Source: a virus (taxonomy: Duplodnaviria; Heunggongvirae; Uroviricota; Caudoviricetes). From it: DNA of 30,859 nucleotides. The notes beneath the pieces are model-generated. The model was not told where the DNA came from, did not search any database, and saw only the letters and a list, made by a program, of their open reading frames with translations. Numbering within the stretch: the first letter of the stretch is position 1; every line of letters starts with the position of its first letter. The stretch lies in IMG/VR virus record IMGVR_UViG_2740892488_000014; one strand, 5' to 3'. A program made the position numbers and the translations under genes. Positions 4,885 through 8,472 of this stretch are shown here, one piece after another.

Positions 4885-4923
4885 GAATAATAAATTGTGC
4901 AAATAGTGCAGTTTTTATTATTC
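4885..4923. promoter_or_regulatory. 10-bp perfect inverted repeat (GAATAATAAA / TTTATTATTC) around a GTGCAAATAGTGCAG core, just upstream of the 213-aa gene
   Basis: Read directly from the sequence. It ends 9 nt before the ATG at 4933 and overlaps the region just 5' of the GAGG Shine-Dalgarno. The core resembles GTGCAAATTCTGCAC at 4131-4145. Confidence 0.4.
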
Positions 4924-4932
4924 GAGGTAATT

Positions 4933-5574
4933 ATGAAAACCTTCTATGAGGACTGGCCTGAAACTTTCGTTAGCCGGTTAGATATGTTACGGGCGTTGGA
5001 TGATCGCGGTTCGACCCGGAGGCTCTATCTTGAACGGACCGGGGCAATATTTGACGCTCTGGCAGAAGAGATACGTACAGTCGTTGCCGGGCATCCTGAA
5101 ATCGACGTGAGTGAACTTGATATCGGGCCGCTGTATCGCTATTACAAACGTGGAGAAAAGGGGAATCCGCTGGCTGACTTACTTATTGAGTTGGCTCCAC
5201 CAACTTGTGAACGGGTTCGTATATCTCCTGAAGTGTACATAATCCCGTATCTGTTTTTTGCACTGTTGATAGCGCAAGGCGCTGACAACGATGCCCGCGA
5301 TTTTTTCAATATGATGATGCGACCGTTAATCATCGCCTACCGTTTCAAACAACTGGCGCGATACCTGGGAACAAAGGGCGGAGGACGACCACAGCACAGA
5401 TTAAAAAGCGAAGCCATTGAACTGGCTGATCGTTTTTTTACTGAAAACCCGACAGCGCCATTATCGCGTGGCGTGCAATACATATCCGGTATTTTTGTGG
5501 CGAAATACTCTGACCCACCTGCAGCGTCGACGATTAGAAAATGGTTAATTCCAATTTACAGGAGTGATAAATAA
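4933..5574 (+). CDS. Hypothetical 213-aa protein; the C-terminal ~50 aa look like a DNA-binding HTH
   Basis: I prefer the ATG at 4933 (MKTFYEDW), which has GAGG 6 nt upstream, over the track's GTG at 4897. The C-terminus GGRPQHRLKSEAIELADRFF...PPAASTIRKWL resembles resolvase/terminase-type HTH tails. I recognise no family. Confidence 0.6.
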   Translation: MKTFYEDWPETFVSRLDMLRALDDRGSTRRLYLERTGAIFDALAEEIRTVVAGHPEIDVSELDIGPLYRYYKRGEKGNPLADLLIELAPPTCERVRISPEVYIIPYLFFALLIAQGADNDARDFFNMMMRPLIIAYRFKQLARYLGTKGGGRPQHRLKSEAIELADRFFTENPTAPLSRGVQYISGIFVAKYSDPPAASTIRKWLIPIYRSDK

Positions 5575-5580
5575 TGACCA

Positions 5581-5611
5581 TAAACGGTTTAATCCCCTAT
5601 AAAACCGTTTA
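5581..5611 (+). terminator. Stem-loop after the 213-aa gene (TAAACGGTTT / AAACCGTTTA, 10-bp stem)
   Basis: Perfect 10-bp inverted repeat starting 7 nt after the stop. It is followed by ATAAAATT, which is not a clean U-tract. Confidence 0.4.
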
Positions 5612-5673
5612 ATAAAATTCACGACGTGAATATAATTGTTCATTATTCCCTCATTGTATTTGGCGTTATGACA

Positions 5674-5722
5674 AATGCCATAAAATACTGTATAAATATG
5701 GGTCTTCCCCGATCATGGTGGG
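5674..5722. repeat. Left (transposase-distal) terminal inverted repeat of the ISL3-family unit
   Basis: AATGCCAtaaaataCTGTATAaaTATGGGTCTTCCCCgatcaTGGTGGG. It overlaps a hairpin, GTCTTCCC (5702-5709) / GGGAAGAC (5720-5727), just past the transposase stop. Confidence 0.6.
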
Positions 5723-5727
5723 AAGAC

Positions 5728-6948
5728 TCAGTACGCCATATTCAGTTTCCCATAGTGGAACATAACTCCCAGTTTAAAGCGTTCCCGGTTTCGGTATCCC
5801 CTGGCCTTTATCCTCAGCAGTCTGATCTTGCTGTTCAGCGCCTCCGCATTTCCATTCGAGACGCGATGACGCATTGCATTCAGTATTCCGTATAACCGTT
5901 TTTTAATGGTTTTCGCTGCGTTTTTCATCATCGGCACATCACATTCAGACGCCAGCGATATCCACTGCAACCAGTCATTCCTGCGTTCTGTGCTCCAGGG
6001 GCGATCCCAGATATTTTTTGCCAGCTCTTTCAGTGTCCAGCACTGGCTTGTCTGTTGCATCTGTTCCCGCAACCACATCAGCTTTTCCTGCCGGGACTCA
6101 GTCATCCATTTGTCGCTGTACTGCCACAGGAAGCGGGTACCTTTGGCCTGACGACGACTTTCAACAGGGAGGTGCGGATGTTCATTCTGGCGGGTTTTAT
6201 CAACCACTTCGCCCAGTTGCTTCGCCACATGGAAGCGATCGAAGGCGATTTTCTCGACCGCATTGGGTAAATGGATACGCGCTGCTCTTATATAGCCCGC
6301 ATTCATGTCCATCGACAGTGTTTTGATGGCCAACAACTGACTGTCAGTAAGCGAACGGAGATAGCTGGCAAGACTCTCTGTGCCACGATCATCGGTTAAT
6401 GCCAGTGCCCGCCCGTCGCGATCAGATACCACGGTTATATACCTATGCCCTTTTTTAAAGGCGACTTCGTCTACATTCATATGACGCACTGATAAAGGCT
6501 TTTTAATCCGCGACAGGCCTCGCTTAACCGCGCGGGTCATGATGCCGTCAACGGCATTCCAGCTAAGTTTAAGTTGTTTTCTGACCGCATCAACGGTGCT
6601 GATTTTAAGCCATGAGAGCACGAACGATTCGAACAGCAGAGTGTACCGACTGCCGGAACCTGCCCACGGTACAGGCAGAGTCTGGCAGCCATGCTCCGGG
6701 CACATAACGCGGGGAACATCGGCTTCTACTAATGTCATGAACTGGCAGGTATCAAGGTGGCGCCATTTACGATGTCGGTGATCGTGAACAGAACAGGATT
6801 TCCTGCAGGTCGGACAGGTTAACTGAGTATTTTCAGCAATTCCGACTGTAACAGTAACGGAACCTGCATTTTCATCGAGGGTAAGGGATTTAACCTGCCA
6901 TGGTGCAGTCAGGTTAAGGATATGGGCATAGAGGGATTTTTCGTCCAT
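5728..6948 (-). CDS. ISL3-family transposase (N-terminal zinc-finger region plus DDE domain)
   Basis: Intact 406-aa ORF. CPTC...H..HR and CPEHGC zinc-binding motifs, then ...VDEVAFKKGHRYITVV...MDMNAGYI...NGNAEALNSKIRLLRIKARGYRNRERF, which is typical of ISL3 transposases. Confidence 0.9.
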   Translation of the reverse strand: MDEKSLYAHILNLTAPWQVKSLTLDENAGSVTVTVGIAENTQLTCPTCRKSCSVHDHRHRKWRHLDTCQFMTLVEADVPRVMCPEHGCQTLPVPWAGSGSRYTLLFESFVLSWLKISTVDAVRKQLKLSWNAVDGIMTRAVKRGLSRIKKPLSVRHMNVDEVAFKKGHRYITVVSDRDGRALALTDDRGTESLASYLRSLTDSQLLAIKTLSMDMNAGYIRAARIHLPNAVEKIAFDRFHVAKQLGEVVDKTRQNEHPHLPVESRRQAKGTRFLWQYSDKWMTESRQEKLMWLREQMQQTSQCWTLKELAKNIWDRPWSTERRNDWLQWISLASECDVPMMKNAAKTIKKRLYGILNAMRHRVSNGNAEALNSKIRLLRIKARGYRNRERFKLGVMFHYGKLNMAY

Positions 6949-6966
6949 ATAATTTCATTCTGAAGC

Positions 6967-7485
6967 TTACTTTAAACTGATATTATTATTTTTTGCCCAC
7001 TTTCTTAATCTTCCATTAGCGTTGGCGTAAGGCGAAGATGTGTTAAATGAGATCATTCTCCCCATCGTCCATTTTGTGTACCATGGTCTTCCATACAAAA
7101 TATCATCGGTACGATCATTAATAAGGTTCACAATCTCATTTTTTACAGTCTGAAGTTCAGCTACTAACAACTCATAACTTAACTCACTGTAATCTGAGTA
7201 AAATTTTTGAGCAAGAAGGCCAAGCTGATTCCATTTATAGCCAGTTTCCGGAAAATCGACAGGCAGACCTTTAGCATCAGAAGCGATCCACTTTACAACA
7301 AGAGCATTCCATCCAAGCAGATACGAAACGAGATCACGAACACTCATCTCCGTTCCTTTGGCGTGTCCGTCCATTGATTTATCTGAAGTAATTTCTGGTG
7401 GGATTGTGTTGAGGTAACTAATTAATTTACTAAAATTTTTATCAATAGCTAAAAGCAGTTCAGCTTTTGTTTGCGGCACACTCAT
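6967..7485 (-). CDS. ClbS/DfsB-family four-helix-bundle protein (DUF1706; colibactin self-protection homologue)
   Basis: 172 aa, GAGGG Shine-Dalgarno. From memory it aligns end to end with pks-island ClbS. Shared blocks are GHAKGT, LVSYLxGW (Tyr at position 55), FPExGxKWNxLGxLAQKFYxDY and LYGxPWYxKWTxGRMIxFNTxSPYxNAxGRL. Confidence 0.85.
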   Translation of the reverse strand: MSVPQTKAELLLAIDKNFSKLISYLNTIPPEITSDKSMDGHAKGTEMSVRDLVSYLLGWNALVVKWIASDAKGLPVDFPETGYKWNQLGLLAQKFYSDYSELSYELLVAELQTVKNEIVNLINDRTDDILYGRPWYTKWTMGRMISFNTSSPYANANGRLRKWAKNNNISLK

Positions 7486-7513
7486 AAGAATTCCCTCTCA
7501 TGTAAAAAGAGAC

Positions 7514-7541
7514 ACCATAAAGGTACTGTGTGGTGTTTGAA
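7514..7541 (-). promoter_or_regulatory. Candidate sigma70 promoter for the clbS-like/transposase transcript, just inside the right IR
   Basis: On the minus strand, TTCAAA (7541-7536), a 16-nt spacer and TATGGT (7519-7514), about 30 nt upstream of the ATG at 7485. Confidence 0.3.
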
Positions 7542-7561
7542 AATCGCTCAATTATGTACCA

Positions 7562-7607
7562 CCCACCACAACAGGGGAAGACCCATAAATATACAGGTTG
7601 TGGCATT
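7562..7607. repeat. Right terminal inverted repeat of the ISL3-family unit
   Basis: The reverse complement reads AATGCCAcaacCTGTATAttTATGGGTCTTCCCCtgttgTGGTGGG, which matches 5674-5722. Confidence 0.6.
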
Positions 7608-7618
7608 GGGGGGAAGAC

Positions 7619-7798
7619 ATGAATATTCAAGAATCTATAGGCGAACTACCGGAAACATGCCGGGCTGTTATCAAGCGTAAGGACGGACACATCGTTGGTG
7701 TGCGTGTTCTGACCGATGATGAGCGGATTGCCAGCCTGATGGCGTTTCTCGAGTTGGCAGAAATAGCTGGATATACTATTACACCCCCTGACGCGTAA
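7619..7798 (+). CDS. Small hypothetical nin-region protein (59 aa)
   Basis: I prefer the ATG at 7619 (MNIQESIG) with the GGGGGGAAG Shine-Dalgarno. The track start at 7598 would lie inside the IS inverted repeat. Confidence 0.5.
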   Translation: MNIQESIGELPETCRAVIKRKDGHIVGVRVLTDDERIASLMAFLELAEIAGYTITPPDA

Positions 7799-7875
7799 AA
7801 CACGGTATAATATCGGTGCTGGATTGAACACCCGGCATCATTTTCTGAACACTGCCGCGCCACCTGGAGTTAACC

Positions 7876-8472
7876 ATGGCGCAGCATTCATTTATCAGGG
7901 TATCCGGCGGTTCGCTAATACCCGCGACACCAGACACGCAACGCTGGTTGACTGAACGAGTCAAACCAGGTGCTGTTGTGTATGCAGATTTCAAACAGGC
8001 GCGTAATCCCGCGTTTCATCGTAAATTTTTCTCACTTCTCAACCTGGGCTTTGATTACTGGCATCCGTCCGGAGGGGCTATTTCTCCTGCGGAGCGCGAA
8101 CTGGTTCACGGCTACGTTAAGTTACTGGCGTATTACGGTGGACACGGTGATGTCATGGCAGAGCTGGCTGATCAGTATCTTCTCGATGAGTCGGAAAAGC
8201 GCGCGGGGAGTATCAGTGCGGTGAAGTCGTTCGAGGCGTTTCGCGCATGGGCGATTATGGAAGCTGGGTTTTATGACGTTCATCAGATGCCAGACGGCAG
8301 TTTGATGCGCGTACCTCGTTCAATCTCGTTTGCAGCGATGGACGATCTTGAGTTCGGTCAACTGTATTCAGCCGTTTTAGATGTGCTGTGGAATTATATT
8401 TTGTTCCGCACATTTGCCTCTCAGGAGGCCGCTGAAAATGCCGCCGCGCAGCTGCTGGATTACACATCATGA
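7876..8472 (+). CDS. Lambdoid nin-region protein, DUF1367-like (198 aa)
   Basis: GGAG Shine-Dalgarno. The size and position (immediately upstream of ybcO-like and Q) and my recollection of the roughly 200-aa DUF1367 phage family support the call. The 4-nt overlap with the next gene suggests translational coupling. Confidence 0.6.
   Translation: MAQHSFIRVSGGSLIPATPDTQRWLTERVKPGAVVYADFKQARNPAFHRKFFSLLNLGFDYWHPSGGAISPAERELVHGYVKLLAYYGGHGDVMAELADQYLLDESEKRAGSISAVKSFEAFRAWAIMEAGFYDVHQMPDGSLMRVPRSISFAAMDDLEFGQLYSAVLDVLWNYILFRTFASQEAAENAAAQLLDYTS

Follow-up and report, generated by a model that had tools for sequence, protein, structure and literature searches.

How does a gene resembling clbS, the cyclopropane-hydrolase gene of the pks (colibactin) island, come to lie among phage genes? 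The question is posed by a 30,859-nucleotide stretch of viral DNA (Caudoviricetes; IMG/VR record IMGVR_UViG_2740892488_000014), hereafter the window, in which an initial annotation made from the sequence alone had picked out a ClbS-like gene at positions 6967-7485 and read it as a copy borne by a transposon within a prophage. Our best explanation, which we regard as quite probable as a whole, is that the gene is the ClbS-type cargo of the insertion sequence (IS) ISEc53, that the clade formed by ISEc53 and its relative ISKox3 homes to the operator dyad of LexA, the repressor of the DNA-damage (SOS) response, and that one copy has inserted into a prophage of the type found in Escherichia coli of sequence type (ST) 131. 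On this reading the element is a site-specific IS with a global stress operator as its target. The targeting is what is probably new, whereas the gene and its carriage by a transposon were known; the target-site specificity, on which the initial annotation was silent, is a more unusual feature than the gene itself.

The carriage by a transposon among phage genes was borne out. The element, its genes and its target site are arranged in the window as follows.

5688-5691, unstranded: CTGT, left half-site of the split LexA box, belonging to the target DNA (the empty site has a single CTGT-ATAAATAT-ACAG).
5692-5699, unstranded: target-site duplication, copy 1, ATAAATAT (same 8-mer at 7585-7592; a single copy in the empty site).
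5700-7584, minus strand: ISEc53, an ISL3-family IS with one cargo gene, 1,885 bp, recurring at >99% identity with different flanks in many records.
5700-5722, unstranded: terminal inverted repeat at the transposase-distal end, GGGTCTTCCCCGATCATGGTGGG (from the inverted-repeat pair, trimmed after end mapping).
5728-6948, minus strand: ISL3 transposase, 406 aa, with Zn ribbon, helix-turn-helix and DDE domains (Pfam and NCBIfam).
6967-7485, minus strand: clbS-like cargo gene, encoding a 172-aa DUF1706 four-helix-bundle protein (WP_000115885.1, identical to PDB 5COF).
7562-7584, unstranded: terminal inverted repeat at the cargo-proximal end, CCCACCACAACAGGGGAAGACCC (from the inverted-repeat pair and end mapping).
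7585-7592, unstranded: target-site duplication, copy 2, ATAAATAT (pair of copy 1).
7593-7596, unstranded: ACAG, right half-site of the split LexA box, belonging to the target DNA (from the empty-site comparison).

The ends of ISEc53, GGGTCTTCCCC... and ...GGGGAAGACCC, were set by comparing copies with different flanks. Membership of the ISL3 family follows from the transposase, with its DDE domain, N-terminal Zn ribbon and helix-turn-helix (PF01610, DDE_Tnp_ISL3, 1.3e-58; PF13542; PF14690; NCBIfam NF033550, 328 bits against a cut-off of 180), as well as from the 23-nt inverted repeats and the 8-bp duplication of the ATAATAT type (ATAAATAT on both sides). RefSeq names both IS genes. The cargo, together with a short 5' region that belongs to it, lies between one terminal repeat and the transposase gene, and the latter begins only 18 nt downstream of the clbS-like gene, a gap so short that it suggests co-transcription of the two. 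Mobility is evident from the distribution: among 5,426 complete E. coli genomes, 675 carry the clbS-like segment, at 939 places (679 chromosomal and 260 on plasmids), with dozens of different flanks and with an empty site for the window copy in more than 400 genomes.

That empty site shows what was there before. At 100% identity, positions 5400-7900 of the window recur in the chromosome of E. coli S65EC and in those of 12 further complete genomes. When the IS and one repeat were removed in silico, the resulting site was found 100% identical in at least 411 complete genomes, including the ST131 strains EC958 and JJ1886, whereas just 13 genomes have the IS there. The insertion is therefore a recent one in a common ST131-type prophage, and the clbS-like gene is not a phage gene; a prophage that lacks it in more than 400 genomes also argues against a gene native to related phages (a moron). 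The original uninterrupted site, TACTGTATAAATATACAGGT, is a near-consensus LexA box, 100% identical in those >400 genomes. With its CTGT-N8-ACAG 16-mer, AT-rich centre and position at a promoter, it is a predicted LexA operator. The idea that CTGT and ACAG are themselves the true IS termini was discarded, given the single CTGT-ATAAATAT-ACAG of the empty site and the variation of the intervening 8-mers between copies.

Other insertions were compared with that in the window. The first five independent copies all had the arrangement CTGT-N8 on one side and N8-ACAG on the other. Further copies were gathered by exact-protein look-up, from a one-genome-per-species and viral collections, from annotated hits of ISKox3, and by scanning viral and metagenome contigs for the exact pattern of one IS end. 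ISKox3 is a 1,316-bp ISL3-family element with the same terminal repeats and a transposase gene whose DNA is about 85% identical, but no cargo; relative to it, ISEc53 has about 570 extra bp, comprising the clbS-like gene and its 5' region, between a terminal repeat and the transposase start. At the transposase-distal end, CTGT occupies positions -12 to -9 in 84 of 103 distinct flanks and CTG is present in 91; at the other end, ACAG occupies +9 to +12 in 55 of 58 distinct flanks and CAG in 57. By chance, each tetramer would be expected in 1/256 of flanks. For 41 sites both ends and a perfect 8-bp duplication were recovered, and these had CTG-N10-CAG in 39 cases and exactly CTGT-N8-ACAG in 35. 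The position-wise consensus of the 41 rebuilt targets, TACTGTATATATATACAGTA, is the textbook E. coli LexA box. ISKox3 accounts for 24 of these clean sites, with the same CTGT-N8-ACAG target and the same 8-bp duplication, and the same flanks were found around four 1,315-bp relatives from IMG/VR contigs with 70-73% transposase identity. In all, about 100 independent sites underlie the target preference. In three relatives at 86-88% transposase identity, a simple test recovered no recognisable ends or LexA-type duplication. The occurrence of the same target with the cargo-less ISKox3 and the 70-73% relatives means that targeting is a property of the transposase clade and not of the ClbS-like protein, and the latter was dismissed as the chooser of the target on the same ground.

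The occupied boxes precede dinD, sbmC, symE, umuDC (chromosomal and plasmid), dinI-like genes and small prophage genes, and a start codon with a ribosome-binding site typically follows 20-50 nt past the box. ISKox3 was found in the LexA box before a umuD-like gene of the IncX3 plasmid pGSH8M-2-4, and in other records in the boxes of chromosomal dinD and plasmid umuDC. The insertions at umuD and umuDC mean that SOS and mutagenesis genes of plasmids have repeatedly been uncoupled from their operators. The IncX3 backbone commonly carries carbapenemase genes. A strong orientation bias relative to the SOS gene was considered and rejected: 19 sites were divergent, with the gene at the cargo-proximal end, against 9 co-directional ones, which is not significant, and in one prophage box the IS points in opposite directions in records L003 and L076.

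Some observations count against an unqualified LexA-box rule. A minority of targets is degenerate, namely GTGT-ATATATAT-CCAT in fimB, ATGT-N8-ACAG, and CTGG-AGACAAAT-ACAG in an IS3 element. Furthermore, 17 of the 58 end pairs lacked a matching duplication and were unusable; these are attributed to recombination between copies or to assembly chimeras. The specificity is thus strong, not absolute. In a search of open-access papers and preprints, with subscription journals and ISfinder notes outside its scope, no publication was found to connect ISL3, ISKox3 or ISEc53 to LexA or SOS boxes, and on balance we think it more likely than not that LexA-box homing of the ISKox3/ISEc53 clade is both sequence-directed and previously undescribed. 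The third of the degenerate sites was seen in OZ038663.1, where ISEc53 lies inside the IS3-family element with a clean 8-bp duplication; being off the consensus, it helps to tell sequence readout from guidance by LexA.

How is the site recognised? The strand-transfer positions fall exactly between CTGT and N8 and between N8 and ACAG, with 8 bp between them and the operator dyad at their midpoint. We propose that the clade integrates at the dyad of LexA operators (CTGT-N8-ACAG), with a dimer or tetramer of the transposase reading both half-sites directly and staggered cuts at the two half-site boundaries leading to duplication of the central 8 bp. The box would then be recognised by the transposase itself rather than through LexA. 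The alternative is that LexA guides the insertion, the transposase being recruited by bound LexA or by a LexA-induced bend and cutting at the edges of the footprint, in which case transposition would depend on the SOS state of the cell. Several observations fit such guidance: the target consensus coincides with that of LexA over all 20 nt, flanking TA and AT-rich centre included, and so extends beyond CTGT/ACAG; nearly all occupied sites are genuine operators before SOS genes, 20-50 nt from the start codon; and the AT content of the centre is 0.90 in occupied sites against 0.66 in unoccupied CTGT-N8-ACAG sites of the same 1.7 Mb. However, LexA should bind poorly to the degenerate targets, both those in fimB and the IS3 gene and the ATGT-N8-ACAG site, and likewise to CTGT-ACTGAACA-ACAG, and the AT-rich centre may simply reflect an ISL3 family habit of using AT-rich 8-bp targets. 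Because degenerate targets are used, direct readout by the transposase is favoured over tethering to LexA, and we consider guidance by LexA unlikely.

Were LexA guidance nonetheless correct, its implications would be considerable. The ISKox3/ISEc53 clade would be the first IS guided by a transcription factor, with a transposase that captures LexA-bound operators, a proposition that we hold to be doubtful. Transposition would be licensed by the SOS-off state, and every insertion would strip one gene of LexA control. In one orientation, the SOS promoter deprived of its operator would drive the transposase and the genotoxin-immunity cargo of ISEc53. That would make the element a mobile device that rewires the DNA-damage response. 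It would spread by homing to SOS boxes, which are abundant on conjugative plasmids and prophages, and bring with it protection from a competitor's DNA-damaging toxin.

The preference has counterparts among other site-specific elements. IS1397 and ISKpn1 use REP/BIME palindromes, Tn7 uses attTn7 via TnsD, Tn5053-type elements hunt res sites and IS30 has hot spots. In common with these, the ISEc53 clade has a defined, recurring target of the often palindromic kind, one that is safe to land in and common on mobile DNA. In contrast to them, its target is the operator of a global stress repressor and the element encodes no accessory targeting protein. With such a target, each insertion rewires one SOS-controlled gene: either the SOS gene is severed from its promoter, or the IS genes are placed behind an operator-less SOS promoter. 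Compact, accessory-free and directed to a palindrome of 16 bp, the transposase is open to study or engineering, and the clade lends itself to testing directly whether transposition can be guided by a bacterial repressor.

Is the cargo itself a colibactin-immunity gene? Read from the open reading frames (ORFs) of the window, the gene runs on the minus strand from an ATG at 7485 to a stop at 6967 and encodes 172 aa. The initial annotation had claimed a match to ClbS over the full length, with the Tyr at position 55 kept in the LVSY motif, and alignment agreed with it on both counts. Residues 1-165 span positions 1-166 of the 166 in the Pfam profile PF08020/DUF1706 (E = 3e-54, 183.9 bits, cut-off 24.2), which makes the protein a full-length member of the ClbS/DfsB family. 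RefSeq likewise names it "ClbS/DfsB family", and no NCBIfam model matched it. In BLASTP against the pks ClbS sequence of PDB 6ANR, 89 of 166 positions were identical (54%; 72% positives) over residues 1-165, with one gap and E = 8e-66; D51-L52-V53-S54-Y55 aligned to N51-L52-V53-S54-Y55 of ClbS, so that the catalytic-type residue is not lost. Among PDB entries, 5COF matches at 100% over all 172 residues, and its deposit title is 'uncharacterized protein'. ClbS (6ANR) follows at E = 1e-55 and 191 bits, against about 71-76 bits for DfsB and IRC4.

The gene is not pks clbS itself. Its neighbours are the ISL3 transposase and phage genes, and the window contains no clb biosynthesis gene; the matching S65EC RefSeq record (100% identity) lists phage genes and the IS only. 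The lack of a pks island or clbQ beside it makes it an orphan homologue, a label that the initial annotation had also given it and that holds for the extent of the window. Compared with ClbS of the pks island (PDB 6ANR, 7MTL, 7MTT), it shares the DUF1706 four-helix bundle, the full-length 54% identity and Tyr55 of LVSY; unlike ClbS, it lies outside the pks island without an adjoining clbQ remnant, differs in 46% of residues and is carried by an IS.

The background given in the initial annotation agrees with the literature. Tyr55 is reported to be critical for the cyclopropane-hydrolase activity of ClbS, and the Y55F mutant not to protect (10.1101/431098). Colibactin induces prophages, and all of the ClbS-like proteins expressed by Silpe et al. 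2022 (PMC8907063), whose identity to ClbS ranges from about 27 to 80%, prevented colibactin from triggering SOS and prophage induction, among them a Bifidobacterium homologue with 27% identity. These protective proteins (E. albertii WP_000115842, QDM73539, and homologues from Metakosakonia, S. alvi and others) are orphans of pks-negative, prophage-bearing gut bacteria, as is the type of gene considered here. QDM73539 ('E. coli 69') is a 172-aa E. coli DfsB-family protein with 52.4% identity to ClbS. It is not among the 15 of 362 cluster members listed for our protein. WP_000115885.1 itself appears at 53.6% in the BLAST table of that study (Supplementary Table 1), in which IS carriage and target preference are not described. 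Two clbS-like families in E. coli bloodstream isolates, of which the window locus is one instance, were described by Mäklin et al. 2025 (bioRxiv 10.1101/2025.11.17.686825), with the gene adjoining a single ISL3 transposase on pUTI89-like plasmids, on chromosomes (ST131 C1/C2, ST69, ST95) and in prophages. The neighbouring genes were termed 'otherwise unrelated', and LexA, SOS and insertion-site specificity were not mentioned. In ST95, the transposase, the ClbS/DfsB gene and a DinI-like gene of pUTI89 emerged jointly from a genome-wide association study. At the bioinformatic level, the gene, the ISL3 gene next to it and its occurrence in prophages have hence been described before, and with entries in RefSeq, Silpe et al. 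2022 and Mäklin et al. 2025 the gene is not a new finding.

On this basis, the cargo protein is most likely a ClbS-type colibactin-immunity protein. It would act in the cytoplasm, hydrolysing the electrophilic cyclopropane warhead of colibactin through Tyr55, and would thereby spare the cell DNA cross-links and SOS and prophage induction near pks+ neighbours. The reading rests on the shared fold, the 54% identity, the catalytic-type Tyr, the closer relation to ClbS than to DfsB or IRC4, the uniform protection by homologues down to 27% identity, and the enrichment in gut lineages that compete with pks+ strains.

Other observations speak against certainty. Tyr55 lies within an (S/A)Y.LGW motif that alignments of distant DUF1706 structures place also in yeast IRC4, Paenibacillus DfsB and 5CQV, and the motif marks the DUF1706 family rather than ClbS function or colibactin specificity in particular. 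Many carriers of the clbS-like gene, for example pks+ ST95 strains with pUTI89 and Nissle 1917, have a clbS of their own, and Mäklin et al. 2025 themselves call for experiments on the E. coli clbS-like genes. The protein could instead be the precursor of a DfsB-type sibling-killing peptide, or a detoxifying or DNA-binding protein directed at another electrophile or stress. The match of 5COF to Paenibacillus DfsB ('Sibling bacteriocin', 5CIV; E = 8e-19), its title as an uncharacterized protein, and the breadth of DUF1706 with a Tyr motif that is not ClbS-specific would suit this alternative, as would the seeming redundancy of a second immunity gene in carriers of clbS. 5COF was presumably solved in the same DfsB-family structural study as DfsB. 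However, the cargo is far closer to ClbS than to DfsB or IRC4 in identity and bit score, the far more divergent Bifidobacterium homologue protected, and spread in pks-negative gut lineages competing with producers fits immunity. We consider a function other than colibactin immunity improbable.

Two further explanations, one for the target sites and one for the cargo, survive less well. Selection after insertion would let the IS enter many AT-rich sites, with only copies in dispensable SOS operators surviving and spreading. It is true that the genes behind LexA boxes are non-essential and normally repressed and that such boxes are common on mobile DNA, which would favour retention and spread. 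However, the register is exact to the base, the duplication being the N8 between the half-sites (35 of 41 exact, 39 of 41 CTG-N10-CAG), and it is the same in both orientations and on unrelated replicons. Selection for neutrality cannot set the cut positions within an operator and leaves the exact register unexplained, which makes it very improbable as the source of the pattern. That the ClbS-like protein is an accessory to transposition, for instance a DNA-binding selector of LexA boxes, rather than cargo of benefit to the host is the least credible of all, despite the gene standing directly upstream of the transposase in what is apparently one operon and despite ClbS being reported to bind DNA (Tripathi and Bruner 2021, as cited in Silpe et al. 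2022, PMC8907063), given that cargo-less relatives use the same target and duplication, that homologues without an upstream IS end exist in several Enterobacterales, and that relics bearing an IS end have no transposase in Proteus, Providencia, Citrobacter and others.

These homologues were of two kinds. Those at 80-90% identity (Proteus, Providencia, Citrobacter, Sodalis, Pantoea, Hafnia) have an IS end about 100 nt upstream and have lost the transposase, and on sequence grounds are decayed, ISEc53-like relics. Providencia stuartii and Proteus mirabilis retain also the first ~95 nt of the transposase gene, and a CTGT-N8 half box still adjoins some of the relics. Homology begins just inside the repeat and ends at the transposase start in Citrobacter amalonaticus, Raoultella, Cedecea and Rahnella, whose homologues are read as probable native-type genes. 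No plausible CTGT-N8-ACAG box that might place the gene under LexA in non-IS contexts was present from -400 to +700 of 23 homologues; four of the 23 had a lone, chance-like CTG-N10-CAG.

What did the insertion do to the prophage in the window? Two features of the target DNA bear on this.

5668-5696, plus strand: SOS-type promoter, with -35 ATGACA (5668-5673), a 17-bp spacer and -10 TATAAA (5691-5696), read from the sequence.
7619-7798, plus strand: prophage ORF of 59 aa with a ribosome-binding site, which started 26 nt past the LexA box before insertion and is now parted from the promoter by the IS.

The -10 element lies inside the LexA box, and the promoter is probably active. Insertion split the operator and severed the 59-aa ORF from this promoter, leaving the latter intact without its right operator half and aimed into the element, whose two genes it would read in antisense. 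In the opposite orientation, as at dinD, an SOS promoter without operator would read through cargo and transposase. Neither by eye nor in a generic promoter scan was an outward promoter found at the IS end that might re-drive the severed gene. The 59-aa ORF lies upstream of ninB-like, ybcO and Q genes and belongs to phrog_340, of unknown function (1.6e-20; RefSeq hypothetical protein WP_001025459.1). No support was found for its being a known antirepressor, as a weak antirepressor-like match belongs instead to the ORF at another occupied box (L003); such a small, apparently LexA-controlled gene could nevertheless be an antirepressor-type induction switch. The special link to prophages that the initial annotation had seen in the gene did not hold up: the IS lands in LexA boxes of plasmids, chromosomes and prophages alike, and, as ISEc53 cuts a prophage SOS promoter off from its gene, the clbS-like gene is not a phage-encoded adaptation.

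Expression of the cargo would depend on one further feature.

7514-7541, minus strand: promoter-like element in the cargo module, TTCAAA (7541-7536), 16 bp, TATGGT (7519-7514).

The element overlaps an inverted repeat, ACACCA-N13-TGGTGT (7512-7517 and 7531-7536), and both are conserved in an alignment of 13 upstream regions, taken from IS copies, from relics and from homologues outside an IS; one homologue has TATAAT at the -10 position. We infer that TTCAAA-16-TATGGT is the promoter on which the clbS-like gene relies, and the repeat could be an operator or a hairpin in the 5' untranslated region. Two points weaken the case for expression in the window: upstream of the clbS-like gene, a generic promoter scan gave no strong sigma-70 promoter and did not flag TTCAAA-16-TATGGT, which leaves expression of this copy unproven, and the antisense SOS promoter could dampen it.

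Elsewhere in E. coli, the commonest chromosomal copy is apparently the fimB insertion of ST131, to which most of the matches listed belong. An 'ISL3-like' insertion in fimB was described from ST131 and Nissle 1917 by Totsika et al. 2011 (PMC3203889), with two coding sequences, one for a 'conserved hypothetical protein', 23-bp inverted repeats and a length of 1,895 bp. This is ISEc53: the reported length is taken as the 1,885-bp IS plus duplicated target bases, and the hypothetical protein is the product of the clbS-like gene. The fimB copy of EC958 (HG941718) has a 3-bp deletion in one repeat, as in that report. Unlike the window copy, the fimB copy occupies a degenerate site within a coding sequence.

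By itself, the gene adds little, being widespread and catalogued, with a solved structure and a published ecological hypothesis. LexA-box homing explains the places in which the gene is found, beside dinI or umuDC on plasmids of the pUTI89 and IncX3 types, at the dinD, sbmC and symE loci and within prophages, and it predicts where the next landings will be. The lineages touched include the major clinical types ST131, ST95 and ST69, and carbapenemase plasmids in the case of ISKox3.

The prophage carrying the window copy is annotated in RefSeq for S65EC at a tRNA-Gly/Cys/Leu cluster downstream of uvrC-pgsA. It comprises an integrase, repressor-type genes and a replicative helicase, followed by the IS, DUF1367/NinB-like, YbcO and antiterminator Q genes, and then lysis genes, terminase, lambda-type head genes and a contractile tail. 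The corresponding part of the window (10000-30859) is a mosaic of a lambdoid Q/nin/lysis region, a lambda-type head (large terminase, gpW, portal, S49 protease, decoration and major capsid proteins) and a P2/Mu-type contractile tail (baseplate V/W/J/I, sheath and tube). On the other side of the IS, a 13-nt inverted repeat at 5581-5611, TAAACGGTTTAAT / ATAAAACCGTTTA, directly follows the stop of an ORF at 4897-5574 (phrog_5215, of unknown function), and is itself followed by a strong promoter-like TTAATA-16-TATAAT at 5609-5636. The segment 5581-5636 looks like a terminator/promoter boundary of the prophage early region.

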